64,000 bases of DNA from Shigella phage CT01: sequence record OK018184. One strand, 5' to 3'. Of this stretch, positions 10,470 through 62,719 are shown piece by piece. A program made the position numbers and the translations under genes. Position 1 is the first letter of the stretch, and each line of letters starts with the position of its first letter. The notes below the pieces were generated by a model. It did not search any database, was not told the DNA's origin, and saw only the letters and a program-made list of their open reading frames with translations.

Positions 10470-10947
10470 AGAAGTTTCTATTCCTAAAATGGGTCTTAAA
10501 CATTATAACATTTTAAAAGATGTTAAAGGTCCTGATGAAAATTTAAAACTTCTTATTGATTCTATTTGTCCGAATTTATCACCGGCAGAAGTTGATTTCG
10601 TTTCTATTCATTTATTGGAATTTAATGGAAAGATTAAATCTCGTAAAGAAATAGATGGTTATACTTATGACATTAATGATGTTTATGTATGCCAAAGATT
10701 GGAATTTCAATACCAAGGAAATACATTTTATTTTAGACCGCCTGGAAAATTTGAACAATTTTTAACTGTGAGCGATATGTTATCCAAATGCTTGCTTAAG
10801 GTCAATGATGAAGTTAAAGAAATTAATTTTCTTGAGATGCCAGCATTCGTTTTAAAATGGGCAAATGATATTTTTACAACTTTAGCAATTCCTGGCCCTA
10901 ATGGTCCAATAACCGGAATTGGCAATATTATTGGATTATTTGAATGA
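10414..10947 (+). CDS. 28: baseplate hub distal protein gp28
   Basis: 177 aa, overlaps the gp27 3' end. Confidence 0.75.
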
Positions 10948-12716
10948 AAAAGCCACAAGAAATGCAAACGATGCGTAGAAAAGTTATTTCAGATAATAAA
11001 CCAACACAGGAAGCGGCTAAATCCGCTTCCAACACTTTATCTGGACTTAATGATATATCTACGAAATTGGATGATGCTCAAGCTGCTTCTGAATTAATTG
11101 CTCAAACTGTCGAAGAAAAATCGAATGAAATAGTTGGAGCAATTGATAATGTAGAAAGCGCAGTGAGTGATACTACTGCTGGTTCTGAGTTAATTGCTGA
11201 AACTGTCGAAATTGGCAACAATATTAATAAAGAAATCGGTGAATCACTCGGGAGCAAATTAGATAAATTAACAAGTTTACTAGAGCAAAAAATTCAGACA
11301 GCCGGAATTCAACAAACAGGAACTAGTTTAGCTACGGTTGAAAGCGCTATTCCTGTTAAAGTTGTTGAGGACGATACAGCTGAATCTGTGGGTCCTTTAT
11401 TACCGGCTCCTGAAGCAGTTAATAATGATCCTGATGCTGATTTTTTCCCTACCCCTCAGCCAGTTGAACCCAAACAAGAATCGCCAGAAGAAAAACAGAA
11501 AAAAGACGCATTTAACTTAAAATTATCTCAAGCTTTAGATAAATTAACAAAGACTGTTGATTTTGGATTTAAGAAATCCATTTCAATTACTGATAAAATA
11601 TCAAGCATGTTATTTAAGTACACCGTTAGTGCTGCTATTGAAGCTGCTAAAATGACTGCAATGATATTGGCTGTTGTTGTTGGAATAGACCTGTTGATGG
11701 TTCATTTTAAATATTGGTCAGATAAATTTTCACAGGCTTGGGATTTGTTTAGTACAGACTTTACTAAATTCTCTAGCGAAACCGGAACATGGGGTCCTTT
11801 ATTACAGAGCATCTTTAGTTCTATTGATGAAATTAAAAAATTCTGGGAAGCGGGAGATTGGGGCGGTTTGACTGTAGCTATTGTAGAAGGGCTTGGAAAG
11901 GTTCTTTATAATTTAGGAGAACTTATTCAGCTTGGAATGGCTAAATTATCTGCGGCAATTCTTCGAGTTATTCCTGGTATGAAGGATACCGCTGATGAAG
12001 TGGAAGGAAGAGCGCTAGAAAATTTCCAAAATTCTACTGGAGCATCTCTCAATAAAGAAGACCAGGAAAAAGTTGCAAATTATCAAGATAAACGAATGAA
12101 TGGAGACCTTGGTCCGATAGCAAAAGGATTAGATAAAATTGCTAATTGGAAAACTCGTGCATCTAACTGGATTCGTGGCGTTGATAATAAAGAAGCACTA
12201 ACTACCGACGAAGAACGTGCAGCAGAAGAAGAAAAATTAAAGCAACTTTCACCTGAAGAAAGAAAAAATGCTTTAATGAAGGCTAATGAAGCGCGCGCCG
12301 CGATGATTCGCTTTGAAAAATATGCTGATTCAGCTGATATGAGTAAAGACTCAACAGTTAAATCAGTTGAAGCTGCCTATGAAGACCTCAAAAAACGGAT
12401 GGATGACCCAGATTTAAATAATTCACCGGCAGTTAAAAAAGAACTTGCTGCTAGATTTTCTAAAATTGATGCTACTTATCAAGAGCTCAAGAAAAATCAG
12501 CCTAATGCCAAACCTGAAACTTCTGCTAAATCGCCAGAAGCAAAACAAGTCCAGGTAATAGAAAAGAACAAAGCACAGCAAGCTCCTGTTCAACAAGCAT
12601 CTCCTTCAATCAATAATACTAATAATGTTATTAAGAAAAATACTGTCGTTCATAATATGACACCTGTTACGAGTACAACTGCTCCCGGTGTATTTGACGC
12701 GACAGGAGTTAATTAA
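10944..12716 (+). CDS. 29: tail tape-measure / baseplate hub protein gp29
   Basis: 590 aa, coiled-coil rich, T4 length and position. Confidence 0.85.
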   Translation: MKKPQEMQTMRRKVISDNKPTQEAAKSASNTLSGLNDISTKLDDAQAASELIAQTVEEKSNEIVGAIDNVESAVSDTTAGSELIAETVEIGNNINKEIGESLGSKLDKLTSLLEQKIQTAGIQQTGTSLATVESAIPVKVVEDDTAESVGPLLPAPEAVNNDPDADFFPTPQPVEPKQESPEEKQKKDAFNLKLSQALDKLTKTVDFGFKKSISITDKISSMLFKYTVSAAIEAAKMTAMILAVVVGIDLLMVHFKYWSDKFSQAWDLFSTDFTKFSSETGTWGPLLQSIFSSIDEIKKFWEAGDWGGLTVAIVEGLGKVLYNLGELIQLGMAKLSAAILRVIPGMKDTADEVEGRALENFQNSTGASLNKEDQEKVANYQDKRMNGDLGPIAKGLDKIANWKTRASNWIRGVDNKEALTTDEERAAEEEKLKQLSPEERKNALMKANEARAAMIRFEKYADSADMSKDSTVKSVEAAYEDLKKRMDDPDLNNSPAVKKELAARFSKIDATYQELKKNQPNAKPETSAKSPEAKQVQVIEKNKAQQAPVQQASPSINNTNNVIKKNTVVHNMTPVTSTTAPGVFDATGVN

Positions 12717-15163: not shown

Positions 15164-17221
15164 CTACATTTTGAACTTTTTAGACATTTCGTTGATGTTA
15201 ACCAAAGAAGCCAAGATTTGAGAAACTTCGTTTTCCTCTTCTTTTGATTCTTCTACAAGGAATTGATTAAATCCAGCCATTGGACGAACTTCACCAGTTT
15301 CCATCAGGTGGTCGCCATCATATACCGATTCTTCTAATTGTTCAGAAGGAGGAACGATTGTGCCTTCGATTAGATACTTGTTATAAGCAGTTTCTTTCAT
15401 CATGTACGTACTCACTTTATTAATCTTCAGTAAAATTCCACGTGGTAAAATAACTTCAGCTTCTGATGGAAATCCTGATAAATGACCCGGAACGATAACT
15501 TTGATTCGCTCAGCTCCTTTAATTACCATACCCACGCTAGTTTCAGCATCTTCATTCGCATAAGCAGAGTGACTGCCCATATGCATTAAATCTTCAGCAT
15601 CAACTGAACCTTCTCCTTCACCAGAAAATACTGCACCAGAATCATCTAGAGCCATATAGTTTTTACCATACTCACCGAAGATATTTGGTTTAAGCGATGT
15701 GGATACGAAGTTCTTGAAATAGAACATTTTATTTTCAATATTATGACGTAAAGTTTTAAAGGTAACTTCTTGTCCACGGTAAAGTGTAGTTCCTGGAGGA
15801 AGAACTGATCCTTTGGCAAAGGCAGAATCCATTGTCTCGATGTGTTTAATAGCTCGTTCCATGTATTCTTCACGTGTAGAATCTGGTTTACCTAAAAGGA
15901 ACGAGTTCATTTCAACATATGAATCTGCACAATAATCTTCAATTACATCAGACTCAGCCTGAGTTAATCCTTTTGGAGTTACTTCAGTACTTGCATATTC
16001 ATACGCTTGAGAAGCAGACTCATTAATCAATTTATAAATGCCATTCATGACAAATTGAATAATAGCTACCTTTTCATCTGGCGTGGCTTTAGAACCTTTA
16101 ACTAAATCATTGACAATTTTCTTAATAACATCAAAACTATTAGAAATATTAATGTCAGCAAGATCGCTTAAAATTTTATCGGTTTTATAATCAAAAAATT
16201 CTTTATTCTTTAAATATTCTTGAGAACCTTGATATGTTATATCGCTCTGTAACTTGATAGATGGATCACGTAAACGTGCATGAGCCAATGCAATATGATT
16301 TCGGAAGCTTTCTAGTTCATAATCACTAGATTTAAAACGAGAAGCACTTCTCATACCACCGATAGCTCCTTTGCTGAAGTTTGAACCAACCTGAATAACG
16401 CCGGAGTTCATTGGTCCTTCTGCTTTATATACCGGAACTTTAGATTCAAACTCTTGATATTTCTTAGCAGCGAAGCTATCACCCTGAAGTGAAGCATCGA
16501 CAGTAGAGTATTGAGCTTGTGCTGCTAATCGACGACTAATTTTAGTTTTCTGAATAACAGCTTGATCCGTGCGCTTATCATTTTCTAAAGCAATAGAAGC
16601 AGCAACAGCAACAGCTTTAGGAACAGCATTGCCTGTTTTAACATCTACATAAACATCACCAACCTTTGATTCAACTTTTGTGAATAACTCAGTTGAAATA
16701 GGAGGTACACCTGGAATGTCTTCTAAATTGGCATTTTTACGGTAAACCATAATATATGCATATTTCTTATCATAGTCCCAGATTTCTTTTAAAAGAACAT
16801 ATCGACCTGCTCCTTTAGTACGTACTAAACGGTCGGCAATAACCTGCATTTGACGAGCTGCGCCATTTGTTTTACTTTTTAGTACGCGGAATAAGCATGC
16901 GTCAATTTTATACTGTTTCATTGTTTGAAGAGCAGTATCAAAAACGGCATTAATGACACCAATTGGATTTCCACCCAAGTTTTTAAGTTTAACTAATGAT
17001 AGTTTCTCATTAACACCTATCATTACGATATGCATCATTTTATCGCCTGGCTTAACATTTTTATTTGTATCACCACCAGAGGTGTATGTACAAAATCTAA
17101 ATCCAGGAAGCACACTTTCTTCGCCTGCTTGAATAGCAAAAATTTGAGGTATTTTATGCTTCGGATTTAAGTTAACAACCGGCGCTTCGGCGCCGTCAAA
17201 TAATTCTGTAATAAGTTCCAT
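15164..17221 (-). CDS. Alt-family ADP-ribosyltransferase paralogue (internal head protein)
   Basis: 685 aa; N-terminus MELITELFD almost identical to Alt; R (LYRGQ), STS (FVSTSL) and ExE (EAEVILPRG) motifs present. Confidence 0.75.
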   Translation of the reverse strand: MELITELFDGAEAPVVNLNPKHKIPQIFAIQAGEESVLPGFRFCTYTSGGDTNKNVKPGDKMMHIVMIGVNEKLSLVKLKNLGGNPIGVINAVFDTALQTMKQYKIDACLFRVLKSKTNGAARQMQVIADRLVRTKGAGRYVLLKEIWDYDKKYAYIMVYRKNANLEDIPGVPPISTELFTKVESKVGDVYVDVKTGNAVPKAVAVAASIALENDKRTDQAVIQKTKISRRLAAQAQYSTVDASLQGDSFAAKKYQEFESKVPVYKAEGPMNSGVIQVGSNFSKGAIGGMRSASRFKSSDYELESFRNHIALAHARLRDPSIKLQSDITYQGSQEYLKNKEFFDYKTDKILSDLADINISNSFDVIKKIVNDLVKGSKATPDEKVAIIQFVMNGIYKLINESASQAYEYASTEVTPKGLTQAESDVIEDYCADSYVEMNSFLLGKPDSTREEYMERAIKHIETMDSAFAKGSVLPPGTTLYRGQEVTFKTLRHNIENKMFYFKNFVSTSLKPNIFGEYGKNYMALDDSGAVFSGEGEGSVDAEDLMHMGSHSAYANEDAETSVGMVIKGAERIKVIVPGHLSGFPSEAEVILPRGILLKINKVSTYMMKETAYNKYLIEGTIVPPSEQLEESVYDGDHLMETGEVRPMAGFNQFLVEESKEEENEVSQILASLVNINEMSKKFKM

Positions 17222-17224
17222 GAT

Positions 17225-19321
17225 TTATCCTTGAACGAACTTGTAAGGCATGTTTGTAATATCTATGCAAGACGCAATAATTCCAAGAGATGATTCTACT
17301 TTCTGTTTAACGTTTGATGAAACAAATGATGCAAAGTCAACTCTGTCTTCTACTTCAATATCACCTGTCATTGCAACTACTTCGCCGGTTTCCATTAGAC
17401 GGTCACCGTCATAAATGACTGATTCGGTGAGTTCTTCCGTAGTCATAACTTCAGCTTGAATGAGTTTTGTATTATTAGATGTTGTTCCGTCATTATTAGA
17501 AGCATCAGTTATTTTATTAACTTTGACCATCAATCCGCGCGGTAGAATAACTTCAGCTTCAGTTGCTATTCCGAGACTTCCTGGATATACAACATTAACT
17601 TTATGAGCTCCATCAATTGCCCATCCTATTTGAACTTTAACGTATTCAGGATTTTCTTTATACGCTCTTATTTCGTTTGGATTAATAGTTATTCCTTCTT
17701 CATTTTTATCAACTGTTAATTCATTACGAGCTTCTGGTTCTAAAAGACCGATACCAGCATGTGTAATTCCAAAACGTCCAAAAATGATAGGAGTTAAAGA
17801 AGTAGATACAAAATTTCTGAAATAGAACACTTTATTTTTAACTAGCGCTTCGTATATAGGAGCAGTCATACTTTGAGCACGATAAACTGTAATGCCTTCT
17901 GGTATACGGTCACCATTTTCAAAAGCTGAATCTAAATTATTTATCGCAGATTCAATTTCTTTTTCACTCATTACATCATATCGTTCTGGATTGTAGCGGC
18001 CTAAAAGAAGATTATTGATGTCAGTATATCCTGATCCACAATACTCTCTAATGCCGCGCTTTTGCGATGGAGTATATTTAGAACCATCACGTGCAATGGT
18101 AATATCAATCATTGGACCTGCACCAATTCCAGAAAAACTATAAATCATTCGTTTGAGGAATTTAGTTTTTGCTGCGTTCCAGGAATTTTTAGTTATTTCT
18201 TCCCAGACTTCATCTGGCTGCCCTTTACGAGTTTTATTATGTTTATCAAGCCAATTATCTTTATATTCTTCAAAGAATTGATTAACAGCTGCTGCGTATT
18301 TCTCTAAACATTTTATTGAAGTAGTTGGTTCATTTTTAATCGCATTAAGAATTACATCTTTAATTTTTTCAGAAACTTCATTAACCTCACTTTTTGAAAA
18401 GAATTTATAGTCATAGTGAAGTTCATCTGCGGTTCCTTCGGCAATAATTTTTGCTGCCTTAGTTTTAGAAGCTAATGAATTAATTCCAAGCTTCATTTCT
18501 TCTGCTTCTGGAATTAAAGGAGCAGTAGCAGGTTTATTAAAATTAGCTGCGGTAGATTCATACTTCTGAAATAATTCACTTTCAAATCTAGAAGATTCTA
18601 ATGATTGACTTTGTGCAATTGCTCTACGGGAAATTTTAACTTTAACTATTACAGCTTGGTCAGAACGTTTATCATTTTCTTGCGCAATAGATGCTGCAAT
18701 TGCTTCATTTTTAGTTACTTGAGCTCCAGTATCTTTATTGATATAAACATCGCCGACCTTCGATTCAACTTTAGTAAAGAGCTCGGTACTAATTTCCGGA
18801 ACTCCTGGAATGTCTTCTAGTGATACATTTTTGCGATGTATAAGAATATATGCATACTTTTTATCATAATCCCAGAGTTCCTTAAGAAGGACGTATCTGC
18901 CACCTGAACGACTACGGATAAGTCTATCAGCAATAAGTTGAATTTGTCGAGCTTGACCAGCAGTTTTAGACTTAAGAATACGAAGCATGCAGGCATCAAT
19001 TTTATACTGACGCATCGTCTGCATTGCAACAGTAAAAACTGAATTGATATAATTAATTGGGCTTGGACCGAGACCTTTCAATTTAGCAATTGAACCTTTA
19101 GCAGTTAATGTAAAAGGAACAATGTGCATCATTTTATCGCCCATCTTTAGATCACGGTTAGTATCACCTCCAGATGTATAGGTACATAAACGAAAGCCTG
19201 GTTGTTCAATTGCGTCATCAACATGAACTGAAAAAATTTGCGGTATTTTCTTCTTTGGATTTAAGTTTGTAATCGGAAGAGTAGTATCTTCGTCAAATAA
19301 TTCTGTAATGAGTTCCATCAT
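17225..19321 (-). CDS. alt: Alt ADP-ribosyltransferase
   Basis: 698-aa ORF (MMELITELFDEDTTLPITNL...); R-STS-ExE motifs YRAQ / FVSTSL / EAEVILPRG; matches recalled T4 Alt. Confidence 0.85.
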   Translation of the reverse strand: MMELITELFDEDTTLPITNLNPKKKIPQIFSVHVDDAIEQPGFRLCTYTSGGDTNRDLKMGDKMMHIVPFTLTAKGSIAKLKGLGPSPINYINSVFTVAMQTMRQYKIDACMLRILKSKTAGQARQIQLIADRLIRSRSGGRYVLLKELWDYDKKYAYILIHRKNVSLEDIPGVPEISTELFTKVESKVGDVYINKDTGAQVTKNEAIAASIAQENDKRSDQAVIVKVKISRRAIAQSQSLESSRFESELFQKYESTAANFNKPATAPLIPEAEEMKLGINSLASKTKAAKIIAEGTADELHYDYKFFSKSEVNEVSEKIKDVILNAIKNEPTTSIKCLEKYAAAVNQFFEEYKDNWLDKHNKTRKGQPDEVWEEITKNSWNAAKTKFLKRMIYSFSGIGAGPMIDITIARDGSKYTPSQKRGIREYCGSGYTDINNLLLGRYNPERYDVMSEKEIESAINNLDSAFENGDRIPEGITVYRAQSMTAPIYEALVKNKVFYFRNFVSTSLTPIIFGRFGITHAGIGLLEPEARNELTVDKNEEGITINPNEIRAYKENPEYVKVQIGWAIDGAHKVNVVYPGSLGIATEAEVILPRGLMVKVNKITDASNNDGTTSNNTKLIQAEVMTTEELTESVIYDGDRLMETGEVVAMTGDIEVEDRVDFASFVSSNVKQKVESSLGIIASCIDITNMPYKFVQG

Positions 19322-21282: not shown

Positions 21283-22214
21283 TAGAATGCTCCTTGAAAA
21301 ATATTATCACCACTAGTAGGTCTATTATACAAATACTCTATGCCACCAGGTTTAATATAGTTCCATGTCTGAAACGGATGTGTCTGATATGGATGATATA
21401 GATGATTATTAGGTCTATTATACAAATACTCTATGCCACCAGGTTTAATATAGTTCCATGTCTGAAACGGATGTGTCTGATATGGATGATATAGATGATT
21501 ATAAGGATTTAATCCAGGCGTTCTCCAGGTAGTGTTCCAAGGAAAAGAATCGTTTTTAACCATCTTCTCAATTAAATCTTTTATAGCTTTTTCACTATCA
21601 AAACTTTCTTTATTTTCCTTCGGCGAAAAAAGCTTATTTTCTACATCATTCCATGTATAAACTCGCTGCGCAGTTTTTGGAATATTGTCACGCTCTCCTC
21701 GAGCCATCCAATAAACAGGAACATTTAATATTTCACTCGCATGATCGCAGTGATGAGCGAGATCGTCAATATAACAAATTACGTTATATTTCTCTTTTGC
21801 CTTTTTGAACAGCTCTTCTTTTGAAGAATCATGACCACACATCATTACTTCCGAGAAAGCACCAGGAAAAAGAGCATTCAAATTAAATTGACGATTCAAC
21901 AGAGCGTCAATAGAATCACCCAATGCTGTAACAGCTACAAAATTATAATCTTCTTTTAATTTGTTAATTACACACAGGGCATCTTTATACGGAGACAAGT
22001 AACGAATAAAATCTGAACGATTGTATTTTTCAATTAACTTGACGCCAAGTTCTTCGTCACAATTAAAGAGTTTACCCGGAGAAATAAATTTCTCATCTTG
22101 GATCATTTTTAAAATATGTTCTAATGGAAGATTATATTTCTGAGCAAAATAAGGAAGGCCTGATTGCCAGCTTAAACATACTCCATCAATATCAGTTAAA
22201 ATAGTTGGCTTCAT
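21282..22214 (-). CDS. HAD-like hydrolase-family protein (30.2 position) with in-frame 31-aa C-terminal duplication
   Basis: N-terminal DIDGV (DxDG) HAD motif; C-terminus repeats NHLYHPYQTHPFQTWNYIKPGGIEYLYNRP twice. Confidence 0.6.
   Translation of the reverse strand: MKPTILTDIDGVCLSWQSGLPYFAQKYNLPLEHILKMIQDEKFISPGKLFNCDEELGVKLIEKYNRSDFIRYLSPYKDALCVINKLKEDYNFVAVTALGDSIDALLNRQFNLNALFPGAFSEVMMCGHDSSKEELFKKAKEKYNVICYIDDLAHHCDHASEILNVPVYWMARGERDNIPKTAQRVYTWNDVENKLFSPKENKESFDSEKAIKDLIEKMVKNDSFPWNTTWRTPGLNPYNHLYHPYQTHPFQTWNYIKPGGIEYLYNRPNNHLYHPYQTHPFQTWNYIKPGGIEYLYNRPTSGDNIFQGAF
21317..21502. repeat. perfect 93-bp tandem duplication (2 copies) inside the 30.2 ORF
   Basis: 21317-21409 is identical to 21410-21502. 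Confidence 0.9.
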
Positions 22215-27143: not shown

Positions 27144-27664
27144 GTTGATCCTAGCTCCTTACTTTCAACGTTTTTAACTAATTTGACAGAAACTAATTCA
27201 GCATCTTGGGTAATCATTACCGGGCCTTCTTCATACTCTTCAAGATATTCTAGAGCTTTCTTTTTAGCTTCTTCCTTCGTATCAGTTTGAGCATAGATAT
27301 AAAACATACAACCAGTAATACCTACTACTTTCCACTTAATTTCTTTATCAGTTTTAATTTCAAATTTACTGATAGAGTCATCTTTTTGAACTTCTTCGAA
27401 AAAATAATATTCTGACATATAAGTAATTGAAAATAGCGGGCTATCTTTATAAGATTCGCCCATTACATCAACAGCTTTATACCAGCAATCGTCAATTTCG
27501 CGTTTAATGCTAATAACATTTTTCGCAGGATCTATTTTTACTTTAAATGAATTTTCCCCAATAAACTGAGCAATTCGTTTATTAGCCCCGCAAGTTTCAT
27601 TAAAAATATCTTTATATCCAGCTTTAAAGCGATAAACCTTATCTTCTTCAAACCATTCGCTCAT
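27137..27664 (-). CDS. hypothetical protein
   Basis: 175-aa ORF. Confidence 0.5.
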   Translation of the reverse strand: MSEWFEEDKVYRFKAGYKDIFNETCGANKRIAQFIGENSFKVKIDPAKNVISIKREIDDCWYKAVDVMGESYKDSPLFSITYMSEYYFFEEVQKDDSISKFEIKTDKEIKWKVVGITGCMFYIYAQTDTKEEAKKKALEYLEEYEEGPVMITQDAELVSVKLVKNVESKELGSTC

Positions 27665-34729: not shown

Positions 34730-34877
34730 ATCTTGATAGTCTAACAGGTTATCAAGTGCACGTACTTGAACTTCTGCTAATTCATTAATTTTATCTTGGT
34801 CTTGCCAATCGAAGTTATCCAACACAAATGCAGATAACGTGCACAATCCAATTTCAGCATCAGGACTATTCACATCA
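34730..34877. repeat. 148-bp direct repeat of nrdA sequence, left copy flanking the insert
   Basis: Identical to 35737-35884; encodes DVNSPDAEIGLCTLSAFVLDNFDWQDQDKINELAEVQVRALDNLLDYQD. Confidence 0.9.
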
Positions 34878-35736
34878 GTTCGACGCGTTGTTCTTGAAGA
34901 CGGATCACATACTTGGACTGCTAAACAAGATTTTAATGGCGCAGTTAACTTTAACTCTACTGTTAACCTTAATAACACTACCACATTTAAAACAGAAGTT
35001 AAATTCCGCTCGTTGAATGCATTCCGTATGTATGGCGGAAAATTTGGTACATTTTTACGTAATGATGGAGAGAGTCTTTATATTCTTTCCACCGACGAAG
35101 ATGATCAAGATGGAAACTTTAATACAAATAGACCTTTCCGTTATGAATTAAGAACTGGTGATGTTACTTTGGGTGGTGTTAGTGGTGCTAACGTTTTAAA
35201 ATTAAAACGTGATTCTCTCACCGCATTTTTTGGCGGTGATATTAACATGAAAGGCACGATGACTTTTGACGCCGGACGTTTAGGGTCACGAGATTATTTT
35301 AAATTTAACCATTGGGGTGATAGCAATAACGCTCGTGATAACATCATCCAGTTAGAAGATAGTCAAGGCGCTCATTTTTCCACTGAACGTACTTTAGCGA
35401 CTGGTGCAATTAAAACTCGTTTCTTTGGCGAAACATTCACTGATGGTACATTATACCTAAATCAGATGAATAATAGCTCTGAACGATTCCATATCAATAA
35501 TTGGGGAAATTCAGAAGTTGGTCGCGCGGCAGTGATGGAAGTCGGTGATTCCAAAGGTTATCACTTCTATACGGAACGCAGGACAGATAACAGTTTGACA
35601 TTTGATGTTGCTGGCACTTTTACCGTGCATGGACCTACCGGGATCACTATCAAAAACTCTGTTGGTGCTCGCCACATCTGGTTTAAAGATGATAGCGATG
35701 CAGAAAAGGCTGACAGTTTAATTACCTTCCGCAGTG
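34878..35736 (+). other. inserted segment derived from long tail fibre gene 37 (835 bp of gene 37 sequence plus 24-bp filler)
   Basis: 34876-35712 matches the gene 37 copy at 52582-53074 and also contains the 344 bp absent from that copy; 35713-35736 has no match in the window. Confidence 0.85.
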
Positions 35737-35884
35737 ATCTTGATAGTCTAACAGGTTATCAAGTGCACGTACTTGAACTTCTGCTAATTCATTAATTTTA
35801 TCTTGGTCTTGCCAATCGAAGTTATCCAACACAAATGCAGATAACGTGCACAATCCAATTTCAGCATCAGGACTATTCACATCA
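35737..35884. repeat. 148-bp direct repeat of nrdA sequence, right copy
   Basis: Identical to 34730-34877. Confidence 0.9.
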
Positions 35885-37208
35885 TTTGTTGGAATAGCAA
35901 TTTCACAACACAAGTTACTCTGGCGAATAGGCGCCTTTTCACGAATAAACGGAGTATAGTTATTCGTATTATCAATGAACTGCACATAAATCCTTGCTGT
36001 TCCTGATCGTTCAGTCATGAGTAATTCAAATAGTTCACGGGCTTTAATACGCTTTTTGCGAATATTAGGGTCTTTTTCTGCTGCTTCGTATAATTCGCAG
36101 AAACGGTCTTGGTCTTTAAAATAAGAATAATAAAGCTCACCACCCATTTCATGCGGACTGAACAAAGTAATGTAATCGTTCTTTCCAAAACGTTCCATCA
36201 TCAAATCATTCAACTGGACGCCATAATCCATATGACGGATACGGTTTTCTTCTACACCTTTGTTATTTTTCAAAACGAGAAGATTTTCAACTTCCAAATG
36301 CCAAATAGGATAATAAGCAGTAGCAGCGCCGCCACGAATTCCGCCCTGTGAACATGATTTAACAGCAGTCTGAAAATGTTTCCAAAAAGGAATAACACCA
36401 GTATGGCGTACTTCACCTGTGCCAATCTTAGAACCTTCGGCACGAATCATACCAACGTTAATACCGATTCCAGCTCGTTTTGAAATATACTCAACAATTG
36501 AAGCAGAAGCCTTATTGATAGACTTCAGCGAATCGCCTGCCTCAATAACAACGCATGAACTAAATTGCCGAGTCGGAGTACGACATCCAGCCATAATAGG
36601 AGTAGGCAGTGAAATCTGTCGAGTAGATACTGCTTCATAAAAACGAATAACATGTTTTAATCTATCAACAGGTTCATCTTGATGTAATGCCATTCCAATA
36701 GTCATAAATGCAAACTGAGGAGTTTCATAAATTTGACCAGTGGTTTTATCTTTAACGAGATATTTTTCTTTTAATTGCATCGCCCCGGAATAAGTAAATT
36801 CCATATCCCGCTCATGCTTAATTTTTGATTCTAAAAATGTAATTTCTTCTGCTGAATATTTTGACAACAATTCAGGGTCGTATTTACCTTCATTTACACA
36901 GTAAGAAATATGGTCAATAAATGAACGTGGTTCATATTGCCCGTAAACATGCTTACGAAGAGCAAACATTAAACACCGTGCAGCTACGTATTGATAATCA
37001 GGCTCTTCAACTGAAATAGAATTCGCAGCAGCCTTAATTACAATGGTTTGAATGTCATCAGTGGTCATTCCATCACGGAGATATGATTTAATATTTTCAT
37101 ATAATTCATAAGGATCTACAGATGTTCCTTCAGCTGCCCAAGATAAAACTTTAATAATTTTTTGCGGGTCAAAGCTTTGAGAAACACCACTACTTTTGAT
37201 AACATTAA

Positions 37209-40244: not shown

Positions 40245-40709
40245 TCACAATTTTCCAATCAGCTTTAAACTGTTCAACGTCAGAATGATAAATCCAGAAT
40301 CCTGCGCTTTCTCCATCCTCATAAAGAGGGCATCCATCGCATTCATCTTCCCATCCCATATCACGTAAAAGATGTTCGGCTTTTTCAACGAGATCAGAAT
40401 CTTTACCGATGATATTAAAATACCATTTACCTCTAACTTCTGAATCTTTTCTTTAGTAGCCTTTTCCATACTTCTGAACTTAACCAATAGAGGATAGGTA
40501 TCGACACCCATAACTAAACTGGTTACAAGACTGTGTTCACCCACAAGCCATAACGAATACGTTTGAATATCGAGTCCGTAATTTCTGTCTTTATGGACCC
40601 GTACACCCATCACTTCAAATTTCTCACTAGCTTTTTCTACCGCATCCAGGAAATCATCTTTAGTCATATTAGGCCTTAAAAGTTTTTCGCAAAAGTTCAA
40701 TGATTTCAT
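40245..40709 (-). CDS. hypothetical protein (frd.3-like position); true start probably the internal Met
   Basis: 154-aa ORF overlapping the upstream gene by 41 bp. Confidence 0.45.
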   Translation of the reverse strand: MKSLNFCEKLLRPNMTKDDFLDAVEKASEKFEVMGVRVHKDRNYGLDIQTYSLWLVGEHSLVTSLVMGVDTYPLLVKFRSMEKATKEKIQKLEVNGILISSVKILISLKKPNIFYVIWDGKMNAMDALFMRMEKAQDSGFIILTLNSLKLIGKL

Positions 40710-41472: not shown

Positions 41473-42381
41473 TTAAAGGTCATTCAAAAGGTCATCCAGA
41501 TCCGTGTCATCAGCACTAGATGAACTGCCAGAGCTTGAGCTCATAAAATCATCTTCAGTTTTTGTTTTGAAGTCATCAACATTGAATGCATCCAAATCAT
41601 CAGCAACTTTATCAGCTTTCTTAGCGGCAGTTGCTGCGGCACCGCCCATAGCAGCAGTTCCCATAACTTGACTGAACTTAGTGCTCAGTTCTTCAAACGA
41701 TTTGAATTTATCTTTAGAAGTCATTTCAGAAAGGTCAACCATTTGTTCGAACAGTTCTTTCTGGAAAGATTCATCATCAATGTTTGGAATCGCAGATTGA
41801 TTCAGGAATTTAGATTCATCGTAGTTACTAAAACCAGAAACTTGTTTAACTTTCAGTACAAAGTTAGCACCTTCCCACGGACAAGTTACATCAACCGGAG
41901 TTTCACCCATTTCAACATCAACTGCAATCATTGCATTGATTTTATCCCAGATTTTCTTACCAAAACGGTATTTAAATACTTTACCTTCATTTTCTGGAGC
42001 AGCTGGGTCTTTTACTACAAGAATGTTAGCCCAGTAAGAAGTTTTACGTTTAACAAGACCGTACTCTTTATTGTCAGTGTTATACAAATCATTTTTACTG
42101 ATGTACTGACATACTGGACAAGAATCGTAATCACCGTGGGTAGATGAACAGTTTTCAATATACCATTTACCATTTTTCTTGAAACCGTGATTTACAAGAA
42201 TTGCGAATGGTGCTTGTTCATCATTTTTAGACGGAAGAAAACGAATTACTGCTTGACCGTTACCCGCATTATCGAGTTTCAGTTTCCACTCGCCTTTATC
42301 TTCAGAAGAAAAACTACCTTTATTTCCAGCCAGTTTAGCCATTTGTGCAGCGAGTTCAGCAGTAGATTTACGTTTAAACAT
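41473..42381 (-). CDS. 32: single-stranded DNA-binding protein gp32
   Basis: 302 aa; [17 protein letters not shown]..., acidic C-terminus [12 protein letters not shown]; matches recalled T4 gp32. Confidence 0.9.
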
Positions 42382-42628
42382 TTTTATTTCCTTTTTAATT
42401 TAATTAACAGTTGGTGCTATGACGATGTATGACCTCATAGCTGGTCAGTGAGATAATTATAATCTATTTATAATAAGCAATTAATACTTACAAGATTTCA
42501 CAGTTTCAATGAAAACACTTTTGGCTTTCTGTGAATCAATATTTAAAATTTTTCTATAAGCCTTTAACTTTATAGAATAATTATTCCAGACTAAATTATC
42601 AGTCTGTTCATCATGTTTATCAATTATA
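42091..42628. repeat. 538-bp direct repeat, copy 1 (gene 32 5' end, its leader, and the gene 59 3' end)
   Basis: Identical to 42692-43229 (offset 601 bp). Confidence 0.9.
42481..42628 (-). pseudogene. duplicated 3' fragment of gene 59 (last 48 codons)
   Basis: Encodes [48 protein letters not shown], identical to the gp59 C-terminus. Confidence 0.7.
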
Positions 42629-42691
42629 ATTCGAACTGATCTGTGTTTGTGCATTTGGGCATATGTTTGCGCGCGTAAAGCAGGCTGGTCG
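42629..42691. other. 63-bp unique spacer between the two 538-bp repeat copies
   Basis: No match found elsewhere in the window by eye. Confidence 0.6.
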
Positions 42692-42982
42692 ATTTTTACT
42701 GATGTACTGACATACTGGACAAGAATCGTAATCACCGTGGGTAGATGAACAGTTTTCAATATACCATTTACCATTTTTCTTGAAACCGTGATTTACAAGA
42801 ATTGCGAATGGTGCTTGTTCATCATTTTTAGACGGAAGAAAACGAATTACTGCTTGACCGTTACCCGCATTATCGAGTTTCAGTTTCCACTCGCCTTTAT
42901 CTTCAGAAGAAAAACTACCTTTATTTCCAGCCAGTTTAGCCATTTGTGCAGCGAGTTCAGCAGTAGATTTACGTTTAAACAT
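42692..42982 (-). pseudogene. duplicated 5' fragment of gene 32 (first 97 codons) fused to junction sequence
   Basis: Track ORF 42620..42982 begins with the gp32 N-terminus and then diverges into spacer-encoded residues. Confidence 0.7.
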
Positions 42983-43229
42983 TTTTATTTCCTTTTTAAT
43001 TTAATTAACAGTTGGTGCTATGACGATGTATGACCTCATAGCTGGTCAGTGAGATAATTATAATCTATTTATAATAAGCAATTAATACTTACAAGATTTC
43101 ACAGTTTCAATGAAAACACTTTTGGCTTTCTGTGAATCAATATTTAAAATTTTTCTATAAGCCTTTAACTTTATAGAATAATTATTCCAGACTAAATTAT
43201 CAGTCTGTTCATCATGTTTATCAATTATA
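42692..43229. repeat. 538-bp direct repeat, copy 2
   Basis: Identical to 42091-42628. Confidence 0.9.
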
Positions 43230-43735
43230 TTTAAAAACGAATCAAGCAAGATAAACGTCTCAAACGAAATTATATTCGATTGAAGTAGTTTAAAAATATA
43301 ACTTGATTGAACTTTTGGATTATACTCAAAGATTTCTTTAAAAGCAGAAACTTCAACTTTTTTACTAAAATAGTAAATATTGCGAATATCTTCTTCAAAC
43401 TTAAATTTAATTTGCTTTAAGCGTCCGATATATTCACGATAAAACACAAGTGCATCAGCGTCAGAGATGTCACCAATCCAAGCATCTTGGTTAGCAACAA
43501 GATTGCTTATAAAGATTAAAGCAAGTTCCTTTAATTTATATTTTTCTGATAACTTCTGGAAAAAATACTTATCCCTTCGCTTTTGATAAGCGGCATCAGA
43601 CACCCGCATGCACCAATTATACTTAATTACATCATACTTTCCATTCATATGTTGTTTTATCATTAAGTATAATTTATAAACTGATTTACCATCAATATAT
43701 CTTTCACCACCAGCAGGCATGCGGAGTTTAATCAT
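43082..43735 (-). CDS. 59: helicase loader gp59
   Basis: 217 aa, MIKLRMPAGGERYIDGKSVYKLY... matches recalled T4 gp59. Confidence 0.85.
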   Translation of the reverse strand: MIKLRMPAGGERYIDGKSVYKLYLMIKQHMNGKYDVIKYNWCMRVSDAAYQKRRDKYFFQKLSEKYKLKELALIFISNLVANQDAWIGDISDADALVFYREYIGRLKQIKFKFEEDIRNIYYFSKKVEVSAFKEIFEYNPKVQSSYIFKLLQSNIISFETFILLDSFLNIIDKHDEQTDNLVWNNYSIKLKAYRKILNIDSQKAKSVFIETVKSCKY

Positions 43736-50403: not shown

Positions 50404-51096
50404 ATGGCTGATTTAAAAGTAGGTTCAACTGTGGGTGGATCTGTCATTTGGCATCAAGGAAATTTTCCATTGAATTCAGCCGGTGACGATGTACTCTACA
50501 AATCATTTAAAATATATTCAGAATATAATAAACCGCAGGCAGCTGATAACGATTTCGTTTCTAAAGCTAATGGTGGTACTTACACCGGTCCAATTACTAT
50601 TAATTACGGGGTAAATAGTTATCTTCAATTAAGTAATAATGAAACCCCTATCCGAATTCGTTCTGGTGGCGGCACCGGTAATACTCTTGTAATTGGTGGA
50701 TCTTCTGGTGGTATTAGTTTTAGACCTGCAGGTAGTGAAATCACTACTGGACAAATTAGTTTTAGACCTGCAGGTAGTGAAATCACTACTGGACAAATTA
50801 CTATTACGCCAGAAGGTTTGACAACATTCACCAAAGCTGTAAAGGCTCCATCTGTAACTGTTACATCTACTCCTTCCGCAGCATCAGATGCTACTCGTAA
50901 AGATTATGTTGATGGAGCAATAAATACTGTTACAGCAAATGCAAACTCTAGAGTGTTACGATCTGGTGACACCATGACAGGAAATTTAACTGCGCCAAAC
51001 CTTTTTTCACAGAATCCTGCATCTCAACCTTCACACGTTCCACGATTTGACCAAATCGTAATTAAGGATTCTGTTCAAGATTTCGGCTATTATTAA
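50404..51096 (+). CDS. 36: long tail fibre distal connector gp36 (with internal 14-aa tandem duplication)
   Basis: 230 aa; N- and C-terminal regions match recalled T4 gp36; [14 protein letters not shown] occurs twice. Confidence 0.8.
50713..50796. repeat. perfect 42-bp tandem duplication (2 copies) inside gene 36
   Basis: attagttttagacctgcaggtagtgaaatcactactggacaa repeated back to back. Confidence 0.9.
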
Positions 51097-51104
51097 GAGG
51101 ACTT

Positions 51105-53835
51105 ATGGCTACTTTAAAACAAATACAATTTAAAAGAAGCAAAACCGCAGGTCAACTTCCTGCTGCTTCAGTATTAGCCGAAGGTGAATTGGCTATTAAT
51201 TTAAAAGATAAAACAATTTTCACAAAAGATGACTCAGGCAATGTTATAGAATTAGGTTTAAAATATGGAGGAACAATTGATGGTTCTTTAACTGTTAATG
51301 GAAATATAATTGGAAATTTAACAGGTAACGCTGCAACTGCAACGAAATTAAAAACAGCACGAAAAATTAATGGTATATCCTTTGATGGGTCAAAAGATAT
51401 CACGCTAACTCCATCCGACATAAATGTCAATAGCACAACGTTTATAAAAAATAACGGCGAATTACCTGTTGATGCTAATTTAGATACGTATGGGCCTGTT
51501 GAAGAATATCTTGGAGTTTGGTCGAAAGCAACTTCAACCAACGCTCAACCAGCAAATAAATTTCCAGAAAACAATGCTGTAGGTGTGCTAGAAGTATTTG
51601 TGGCCGGTCAATTTGCTGGTACTCAGAGATATACAACTAGATACGGAAATGTTTATATTCGTTCCTTGACTGCTACATGGAACGGAGTAAATGGTCCGTG
51701 GAGTGTGTGGCGAAATATTCAATCCGGTACTCGTTCACTGTCAACAACAATTGATCTTAATGATCTAGGAGGTGCTGAACATCTTGGTTTGTGGCGAAAT
51801 AGTTCAAATTCCATTGCTACCTTTGACAGAAATTTCCCAGAAGAGGGGTCGTCAGCTCAAGGTCTTTTGGAAGTATATGAAGGTGGAAACTATTCTCGTA
51901 CACAAAGATATACAACCAGATTTGGTGTTGTTTATACTCGCTGTCTTACTGCTGCGTGGGATGCTTCTGCGCCTAAATGGGGACCGTGGCAACAAGTCGG
52001 TAATGTCACACCGGCGACTTTCTATGACGGAAACCTGAATGATTTTAAAACTCCTGGGTTATATAATATTTTAGGCACTGATGCCGTTATTAATTGTCCT
52101 ACAGGCGAAGGTTTACCAGCCGTTATTGTTGGTTTGCTGGAAGTTAAACAGCGTGCTTCTGGCGGTGCTATTTTCCAAAAATTTACTACTGCCGGAACAG
52201 GTGCAACTACCCGCGATCGTATTTTTGAGCGCGCATATACCGGCGGTGTGTGGGGTGAATGGAACGAAGTATACACATCTTATTCTCTACCAATTACTTT
52301 GGGTATGGGCGGTATTAAATCTAACTTAGCAGAGTTAGACTGGCAAGCATTTGATTTTGTTCCTGGTAGTATGTTTAGCGTTCCTTTGAACAAAATAAAG
52401 AACATGCCAGCTAATATGGATTGGGGTACGATTGACGGAAACTTAATTATGTTTTCTGTTGGTCCTAGCGAGCACACCAGCACAGGACGTACTGTTCAGG
52501 TTTGGCGTGGAACTGTATCCCAGACAAACTATCGTTATTTTGTCGTTCGTGTATTCGGTAATCCAGGGAGTAGAACATGTACAGTTCGACGCGTTGTTCT
52601 TGAAGACGGATCACATACTTGGACTGCTAAACAAGATTTTAATGGCGCAGTTAACTTTAACTCTACTGTTAACCTTAATAACACTACCACATTTAAAACA
52701 GAAGTTAAATTCCGCTCGTTGAATGCAAGGCGCTCATTTTTCCACTGAACGTACTTTAGCGACTGGTGCAATTAAAACTCGTTTCTTTGGCGAAACATTC
52801 ACTGATGGTACATTATACCTAAATCAGATGAATAATAGCTCTGAACGATTCCATATCAATAATTGGGGAAATTCAGAAGTTGGTCGCGCGGCAGTGATGG
52901 AAGTCGGTGATTCCAAAGGTTATCACTTCTATACGGAACGCAGGACAGATAACAGTTTGACATTTGATGTTGCTGGCACTTTTACCGTGCATGGACCTAC
53001 CGGGATCACTATCAAAAACTCTGTTGGTGCTCGCCACATCTGGTTTAAAGATGATAGCGATGCAGAAAAGGCTGTTATCTGGGCTACAGATGAGGGTATT
53101 TTACATATTCGCAATAATCATGAGGGTTCATTTAGTCATCACTTCCAGGGTGCAATGATTAAACTGGAAGGGCGTGTTCCTTATGGTGCAGCAAAAGGGC
53201 TTATTCGAGGCGAGATAGACGGTGGTGCATATGTTGCATGGAGAGACCGCCCTGCTGGTTTGTTGGTTGACTGCCAGAAAAGTATTGACAGTGCTCATGC
53301 TGTTTGGAAAGCGGTTGATTGGGGGCGTCAATATATCGCTGCTATGGACGTTCATTGTCCGGGTGATGGTAATAATACTGCGGCAGCGGTTCTTCATGTT
53401 CAGGCTGCTGATTATCAATTCCATGCAAGCGGAGAATTTCATGCCACTGGTAACGGGAACTTTAACGATGTGTATATTCGTTCCGATGGTCGTCTGAAAA
53501 TTAATGTTGAAGATTATACAGGAAATGCGTTAAGTTTGATCGGCAAACTGAAAGTGAAAACTTACGATAAAGTTAAATCTCTTAAAGACCGTGAAATTAT
53601 CGGTCACGAGATCGGCATTATCGCACAGGATTTACAAGAAATATTACCGGAAGCTGTAAAATCTTCAAAGGTTGGCAATCTTGATAATCCAGACGATGTT
53701 CTGACAATTTCTAACTCTGCTGTGAATGCTCTTTTAATTAAGGCTATTCAGGAAATGAGTAAAGAAATTAAAGAATTGAAAACTCCTTTCTTTACTAAAA
53801 TTGCTCGCAAAATTAGTAAATATTTTAAATTCTAA
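51105..53835 (+). pseudogene. 37: long tail fibre distal subunit gene 37, broken by a 344-bp frameshifting deletion at 52727/52728
   Basis: Two overlapping ORFs in different frames (51105..52748 and 52723..53835); the missing 344 bp is present in the copy inside nrdA at 35022-35365. Confidence 0.8.
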
Positions 53836-61820: not shown

Positions 61821-62378
61821 TTAAATGGAAAGATACCATCCGTTGTAGTTGCTTTTTCTTACAACCTTACGAAGGTCTTCTCTATCACCGACGAACTTCG
61901 GAGTGTACTGGATGACACCTGGATGAATTTCTTTAGTGTTGAATATAATTATACAGTCAGCGACTTGATGATTCAGAATGGGCCCTAGATTTATTCCAGA
62001 ACCGTATGGATACTCTCCGCTGCATCCGGTTGTTACAGAAATCCAACGTGAGTCAGTTTGGTGTGTCTTAACTTCTACGCGAATCCCGCAGTATCTTGGA
62101 TGCGCCAATACATCCCATGCGTATGTATACGGGTCATTAACATCCTCTTGGCCTTTGTTAACATACCCGCTTAGCCAATCTGCTACAAAAAACTCTGCGT
62201 ACACCGCGATACGGCATCTTTCGATAACTTCTGCTTTATCCTGATTTGGATTTTGTTTTAAAGAGTATCTTGCTGTATCAGCAATTTTGACCTTCATTTC
62301 ACTAGTCAAGTCACTGTTCGATAGGGTAAATGTCGGAATCTGAAATAGTCTCTGTAAACCCGGATTCGTTTTCTGCAT
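61821..62378 (-). CDS. denB: endonuclease IV (DenB)-like protein
   Basis: 185 aa, T4 denB length and position between ndd and rIIB; identity by synteny and length only. Confidence 0.6.
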   Translation of the reverse strand: MQKTNPGLQRLFQIPTFTLSNSDLTSEMKVKIADTARYSLKQNPNQDKAEVIERCRIAVYAEFFVADWLSGYVNKGQEDVNDPYTYAWDVLAHPRYCGIRVEVKTHQTDSRWISVTTGCSGEYPYGSGINLGPILNHQVADCIIIFNTKEIHPGVIQYTPKFVGDREDLRKVVRKSNYNGWYLSI

Positions 62379-62719
62379 TAAACTTTCCTTTTACGTCGGA
62401 ATCACTGATATTCATACAATAAATCATAACTTCCCTTAAAACAAAAGGGCCGAAGCCCCTTATTTTATTTGAATTGTGCAATTCTTTTCTCTATCTTGCT
62501 GTATCAGCAATTTTGACCTTCATTTCACTAGTCAAGTCACTGTTCGATAGGGTAAATGTCGGAATCTGAAATAGTCTCTGTAAACCCGGATTCGTTTTCT
62601 GCATTAAACTTTCCTTTTACGTCGGAATCACTGATATTCATACAATAAATCATAACTTCCCTTAAAACAAAAGGGCCGAAGCCCCTTATTTTATTTGAAT
62701 TGTGCAATTCTTTTCTCTA
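62266..62719. repeat. perfect 226-bp tandem duplication (2 copies) spanning the denB 5' end, its upstream region with terminator, and the 3' end of the 64-aa gene
   Basis: 62266-62491 is identical to 62492-62717; boundaries ambiguous by 2 bp. Confidence 0.9.
62446..62468 (-). terminator. hairpin gggc-cgaa-gccc plus T-run; further copies at 62672-62694 and 62903-62925
   Basis: aaaagggccgaagccccttattttatttgaattg occurs three times. Confidence 0.5.

Follow-up and report, generated by a model that had tools for sequence, protein, structure and literature searches.

We analyzed a 64,000-nucleotide stretch of DNA from Shigella phage CT01 (sequence record OK018184; hereafter, the window), which carries a 538-bp direct duplication at the junction of gene 32, encoding the single-stranded-DNA (ssDNA)-binding protein gp32, and gene 59, encoding the helicase loader gp59. 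The window belongs to a Tequatrovirus, and its closest record is Shigella phage SF2-1 (98.5% over 24 kb). A preliminary description had given the locus as one complete gene 32, a fragment of gene 59, a spacer, a 97-codon stub of gene 32 with its own leader, and a complete gene 59, and both the open reading frames (ORFs) and the identity of the repeats bear out this anatomy. The features are as follows.

42091-42628: repeat copy 1, 538 bp, spanning gene 32 codons 1 to 97, the leader (99 nt) and the 148-nt 3′ end of gene 59; identical to copy 2
42692-43229: repeat copy 2, 538 bp; identical to copy 1
42629-42691: spacer (filler) foreign to the phage, 49% G+C, unmatched in phage records, IMG/VR and metagenomes
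42649-42688: mdtD-like part of the spacer, 36 of 40 nt as in Escherichia coli mdtD, with a 26-nt exact core at 42655-42680
41473-42381, minus strand: intact gene 32 (gp32, 302 amino acids), with a full-length alignment to T4 gp32 (8GME)
43082-43735, minus strand: intact gene 59 (helicase loader, 217 amino acids), the same protein being widespread, with Pfam domains T4_Gp59_N and T4_Gp59_C
42620-42982, minus strand: truncated gene 32 ORF (32′ stub), gp32 residues 1 to 97 plus 23 residues from the spacer and out-of-frame gene 59
42481-42628, minus strand: orphan 3′ end of gene 59, 48 codons and the stop (148 nt), in frame only within the ORF at 42481-42774
42382-42480, minus strand: leader copy 1, before the intact gene 32, with a pseudoknot at 42416-42447, UUAAA/UAAA repeats, a Shine-Dalgarno sequence and putative promoter motifs
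42983-43081, minus strand: leader copy 2, before the 32′ stub, the same as copy 1, with the pseudoknot at 43017-43048 and TATAAATA at 43066-43073
42137-42156 (copy 1) and 42738-42757 (copy 2), minus strand: probable SegG target region, gene 32 nt ~226 to 245, position deduced

The two repeat copies lie head to tail in direct orientation and are identical at 538 of 538 positions, with the very next base differing at each end. Chance cannot account for an exact match this long. The 63 bp between them have a G+C content of 49%, against 36% for the window as a whole. All of the genes at the locus are on the minus strand. Along the direction of transcription, gene 59 (43735 to 43082) is followed by a 99-nt leader (43081 to 42983), gene 32 codons 1 to 97 (42982 to 42692) and the spacer, and then by the final 148 nt of gene 59 (42628 to 42481), the second leader (42480 to 42382) and the complete gene 32 (42381 to 41473). 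The ORF that holds the orphan gene 59 end shows no evident start signal.

Both genes have an intact copy. The gp32 ORF aligned over residues 1 to 302 with the solved T4 gp32 (E = 5e-195) and has the N-terminal basic region, the core and the acidic C terminus of a full-length protein (Pfam PF08804). Intact gp59 contains both of its domains (PF08993 and PF08994), as assigned through its identity to a widespread protein, and the orphan fragment corresponds to the last 48 residues only. Since each gene is present once in intact form with its native upstream sequence, no loss of function is expected. At gp32 residue 23 (codon 42313-42315; second copy, 42914-42916), the window encodes a serine where all 13 relatives compared have a glycine or no residue; the serine codon is present in both repeat copies, and the exact gp32 protein is unmatched in a large protein collection.

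The 32′ stub is a 120-amino-acid ORF that encodes the basic N-terminal region and the zinc-ligand region of gp32, runs on through the spacer and stops after 23 added codons. The solved gp32 core spans residues 22 to 239 (1GPC). The stub stops at residue 97, one-third of the way into the core, and it matches only positions 1 to 59 of the 208 in the PF08804 profile; the complete DNA-binding core is not retained, and the stub would be unable to form it. It had been suggested that this ORF could yield a fragment with the basic N-terminal region. That much stands, as the leader and ribosome-binding site are complete, but the effect on cooperativity attached to the suggestion is unsupported. The further proposal that the stub is a dominant modifier of ssDNA binding finds no support: the stub ends within the core, and the duplication is not conserved among relatives. 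Weak interference with gp32 cooperativity is possible, although unsupported, and classical N-terminal amber fragments of gene 32 are said to be recessive in mixed infection.

The two 99-nt leader copies are identical, and from −70 to +66 they are the same as phage T2. Each has the stems of the T2-type pseudoknot (TGACC/GGTCA and GCTATGA/TCATAGC), two UUAAA and three UAAA motifs, and a Shine-Dalgarno sequence. The gene 32 translational operator of T2 and T4 has been described as a 5′ pseudoknot followed by an unstructured UUAAA/UAAA tract over the ribosome-binding site (PMC535899). Judged by sequence, the leader matches this operator, so the operator is present twice, as the preliminary description had proposed for the gp32 autoregulatory site; no Rfam family matched the leader. 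Leader copy 1 also has a late-promoter-like TATAAATA (42465-42472) and a MotA-box-like TGCTTA within the same 99 nt, which we take as candidate promoter elements. The 32′ stub probably behaves like gene 32 itself in being transcribed, translated and subject to gp32 repression, and the second operator would be expected to titrate a negligible share of gp32.

Comparison with related T-even genomes placed the duplication in this record only. Neither the duplication nor the spacer was seen in any of ~850 Tequatrovirus records, and in the best 30 of the 851 phage records matching the region the match falls in two pieces that span ~1,800 bp, versus 2,401 bp here, which is the single-copy layout. By these records, the 538-bp duplication is private to this sequence. 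The exact gp32, gp34 and 32′ stub proteins are absent from the public collections searched. No IMG/VR contig has the novel junctions, a weak negative result given that only two contigs there carry even the native T2-type pseudoknot.

The spacer appears to have come from outside the phage. Of the 40 nt at 42649-42688, 36 match E. coli mdtD as found in >5,400 genomes, and the match includes the 26-nt exact run, for which the estimated chance is ~1e−7 per one 5-Mb genome. Over its whole length, the spacer agrees with mdtD in 53 of 67 aligned columns with five 1-nt gaps, and within the good mdtD-like part, four of six substitutions alter the amino acid. No phage record matches the spacer or spans its junctions, and matches in plasmid collections were mislabelled E. 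coli chromosomes at mdtD only. A peptide search with the hybrid MdtD returned short E. coli-like fragments only. Scans of GTDB genomes found no donor, but the same scan missed the 26-mer that is present in >5,000 E. coli genomes and is possibly unreliable. We conclude that the spacer is, to judge by the mdtD match, bacterial chromosomal-type DNA, from a relative other than E. coli or as a patchwork copy. An adapter or vector origin of the fillers in the window was considered and rejected, as they have no similarity to plasmids, vectors or adapters.

The duplication is one of at least eight private rearrangements in 43 kb, namely, five exact tandem duplications, two deletions and one inverted insertion. 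These were found by alignment to SF2-1 and by comparing the window with itself. The four other duplications are absent from the relatives compared. The 115-bp deletion was seen only against SF2-1, the sole alignable relative, the gene 37 deletion was seen against relatives with an uninterrupted stretch, and the rIIA junction was compared with SF2-1 only. The other rearrangements are as follows.

50713-50800: 42-bp exact tandem duplication without spacer in gene 36, in frame
21317-21506: 93-bp exact tandem duplication without spacer in a gene 30.2-like ORF, in frame, ORF intact
62266-62719: 226-bp exact tandem duplication without spacer at the sequestin/denB junction, both genes intact
34730-34880 and 35737-35887: 151-bp direct duplication (nrdA nt 1332 to 1482) around an 856-bp insert in nrdA
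40440-40449: 115-bp deletion with 7 to 10 nt of microhomology, fusing frd.2-like and DUF5417 ORFs out of frame
52726/52727: 344-bp deletion in gene 37 (51105-53835), causing a frameshift that splits the gene into ORFs of 547 and 370 amino acids
63934-64000: change in rIIA, 63 nt before its end, to 27248-27313 in exact inverted form, cut off by the window end

The insert in nrdA begins with 837 bp (34876-35712) that are 100% identical to SF2-1 gene 37, followed by a 24-nt filler, and it contains an intact copy of the stretch deleted from gene 37. A source for the 24-nt filler was not found in the window, the part of SF2-1 compared, E. coli or IMG/VR. The locus at 27248-27313 is itself intact, and therefore the rIIA junction is an inserted inverted copy. 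Most of the scorable junctions have microhomology of 2 to ~10 nt, and two have none. Both duplications that lie inside ORFs (42 and 93 bp) are in frame. The first 21 kb, with baseplate and tail genes, shows no structural anomaly, and the sequence is of good quality at the base level. In SF2-1, 84 kb of sequence contained a single small, imperfect 24-bp tandem repeat and nothing comparable to the exact tandem duplications of the window.

At its left end (42629-42640), the spacer reads in reverse complement as ATCAGTTCGA, which is also found at the novel nrdA/gene 37 junction at 34874-34883. Ten-mer matches are expected ~6.6 times window-wide, and the chance that one falls on another novel junction is ~0.02. 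This match may be a coincidence, or the spacer may be a patchwork.

Two of the duplications lie at places where related phages carry homing endonuclease genes. In T4, segG is inserted between genes 32 and 59, and the target of SegG is gene 32 (PMC2988022). T4 and three relatives (L005, L006 and L013) have SegG or a 210-amino-acid (633-bp) ORF between genes 59 and 32, the segG-like ORF of the three relatives lying at 10656-11288, whereas the window has none and the intergenic region is 99 nt. An alignment of 14 genomes showed that gene 32 nt 229 to 231 is ACA in all four segG-positive genomes versus 2 of the 10 without segG (Fisher p = 0.015), and this segG-linked polymorphism falls within the duplicated gene 32 nt 1 to 291. 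A 2003 study by Liu and colleagues is said to have placed SegG cleavage 332 bp from the insertion site, at about gene 32 nt 232. In nrdA, relative L012 has a gene for an I-HmuI-like HNH endonuclease (17986-18696) inserted between nt 1348 and 1378, a site that the nrdA duplication of the window encloses. Both duplications that bear filler thus appear to enclose a homing endonuclease site whose slot is empty here, for which our rough estimate of chance occurrence is 1 to 2%. No link of this kind was evident for the remaining rearrangements. Relative L010 has a GIY-YIG ORF (16382-17113) upstream of nrdA. The window is without segG-like, I-HmuI-like and GIY-YIG ORFs and also has no counterpart of the mobE-like gene lying between nrdA and nrdB in SF2-1.

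Our preferred interpretation, which we hold tentatively and at close to an even chance, is that the 538-bp duplication may be a one-off, very recent and nonadaptive product of repair, inside an infected cell, of a double-strand break in gene 32. Gene 32 would have been cut near nt 230, either in a cell co-infected by a segG-positive relative or through a break of another kind. The broken ends would have been extended on a sister genome, reaching gene 32 nt 291 on one side and running back to gene 59 nt 508 on the other. Instead of annealing in register, the ends would have been joined through the 63-bp patch, made by template switching onto bacterial mdtD-like DNA. The product would be intact genes 59 and 32 with their native upstream signals, plus the 97-codon 32′ stub with promoter-like sequences, operator and ribosome-binding site. 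A duplication around the break site together with a copied filler would arise because both ends were extended on the sister copy and joined out of register. In T4, endonuclease breaks are documented to undergo illegitimate repair mediated by microhomology (PMC2988022). Since 538-bp perfect repeats would be expected to disappear quickly from a recombination-proficient T-even phage, the structure should be very young or present in only part of the population; persistence of the repeat would need selection, of which we saw no sign. In a wider form of the proposal, which we regard as doubtful but worth stating, the gene 32/59 and nrdA duplications would both be natural scars of endonuclease attack between co-infecting T-even phages, left by synthesis-dependent end joining instead of homing, a process that would have duplicated gene fragments along with their leaders and, in one case, captured a piece of bacterial chromosome.

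Several observations weigh against repair in the cell. There is not one difference between the repeat copies. The place where SegG cuts is deduced only from the polymorphism and the distance attributed to Liu and colleagues, and the 42-, 93- and 226-bp duplications are not near any known endonuclease slot; for the 226-bp duplication, 10 relatives were inspected and none showed a slot nearby. The left 23 nt of the spacer are not significantly mdtD-like alone, and no exact donor for the spacer was found in IMG/VR and metagenomes by exact or codon-degenerate scans. The load of rearrangements is far above that of any relative examined at these sites. One of them is a frameshift in gene 37, which encodes the essential distal long tail fiber, and therefore a clonal phage with this sequence should be noninfective.

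The rearrangement load, the gene 37 frameshift and the identical copies would fit equally well an artifact made outside the cell: a chimera generated during phi29 whole-genome amplification or while the library was prepared, or an assembly error in which a chimeric long read was retained as the backbone. In that case, the duplication and its 63-bp patch would never have been part of a viable phage genome. We consider such an origin quite plausible, if somewhat short of even. T-even phages have glucosyl-hydroxymethylcytosine DNA that is in some cases amplified ahead of sequencing, and phi29 chimeras, too, arise at microhomologies; both facts count for an artifact. An artifact would account for at least eight private structural anomalies in 43 kb when 84 kb of SF2-1 contain no exact tandem duplication of this kind, for a gene 37 that is frameshifted while its deleted stretch sits intact inside nrdA, for repeat copies without a single difference, and for fillers of mixed or untraced origin. 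The absence of the exact gp32 and gp34 from every public collection searched, and of the novel junctions from IMG/VR, points weakly the same way. On the other side, an artifact would not be expected to place both filler-bearing duplications around homing endonuclease sites, to keep ORF-internal duplications in frame or to leave 21 kb of essential structural genes without anomaly (~3 to 5% by chance). The fillers are unlike adapters or vectors, base-level accuracy is high, and only one of the nine junctions is inverted; Lasken and Stockwell reportedly found in 2007 that phi29 chimeras are mostly inverted. The case for an origin in the cell is thus made by the two endonuclease sites, the 2 to 10 nt of microhomology at most scorable junctions, the in-frame ORF duplications and the spared structural genes.

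Two other explanations are considerably weaker. Selection may have kept the second operator, gp32(1-97) or both for changing the level or the cooperativity of gp32, which we find improbable. The leader of the stub is complete and identical to the functional one, the stub encodes the basic N-terminal and zinc-ligand regions, and gp32 has its private serine at residue 23, all of which would suit a selected duplication. However, none of ~850 relatives has it, the copies have not diverged at all, the spacer is nonfunctional foreign DNA, the fragment is without two-thirds of the core, the recessivity of classical gene 32 amber fragments speaks against an effect, and the same genome has many plainly nonadaptive or destructive rearrangements. 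Still less credible, and in our view very improbable, is a laboratory construct in which the repeats are an insertion/substitution vector scar or a cloning remnant around a short linker. Single-crossover integration does leave direct repeats around an insert, and the spacer has TTCGAA and GCGCGC sites, but it matches no plasmid or vector and is a diverged fragment of a chromosomal gene, not a linker, and the backbone is a wild T2/SF2-1-like mosaic and not a laboratory T4 strain. Rearrangements planted in silico were ruled out by the 4 to 10 nt of microhomology at several junctions and by a spacer that is a diverged natural gene fragment.

We class the feature either as a further instance of a familiar type of event or as an artifact, and not as a novel regulatory system. 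A real duplication would be a dated snapshot of a lytic phage misrepairing a break in an essential gene, with both genes left intact, a leader copied and foreign DNA fixed, and it would show a route, tied to homing endonucleases, by which gene fragments and host DNA could enter T-even genomes. Were both duplications scars of endonuclease attack, warfare between endonucleases would generate tandem duplications and bring host DNA into strictly lytic phages, and the 32′ stub would be a natural experiment with the gp32 cooperativity domain under its own operator. If it is an artifact, the sequence is unfit for comparative or regulatory inference, and the same caution applies to the other rearrangements, including the apparently broken tail fiber gene.

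The locus resembles several known systems in part. Compared with the gene 32 operator of T2 and T4, each repeat copy has a T2-identical leader, but here there are two copies, one of them before a 97-codon stub. It shares with SegG homing and marker exclusion the empty slot, the probable target in the duplicated segment, microhomology at junctions elsewhere and the parallel case in nrdA; the normal outcome of homing is a gene conversion that brings in segG with donor markers, whereas here there is a tandem duplication with a foreign patch and no conversion.

Spontaneous tandem duplications are known in T4 from the classical rII work, as is "accordion" amplification under defense pressure. The present repeat is like the T4 duplications in its head-to-tail arrangement by nonhomologous joining and in its expected instability through homologous recombination. 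It differs in its unit of 601 bp, which holds no complete gene, in having exactly two copies and in the 63-bp bacterial-like patch at the joint; accordion units hold at least one complete gene, and their copies often number more than two.

Templated-insertion end joining and microhomology-mediated break-induced replication have been described mainly in eukaryotes (e.g., PMC2671141). By analogy, a duplication flanking a break and a filler copied from elsewhere would be the shared signs, although the organism and the enzymes differ. The window also resembles phi29 chimeras and long-read misassemblies in its many private rearrangements, distant or contaminant DNA, short junction homologies and broken essential gene, and it is unlike them in its mostly direct, not inverted, joins, its two endonuclease sites, in-frame bias and spared essential genes. 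Differences from SF2-1 that are ordinary polymorphisms comprised a 594-bp insertion common to other phages and the absence of one small gene.

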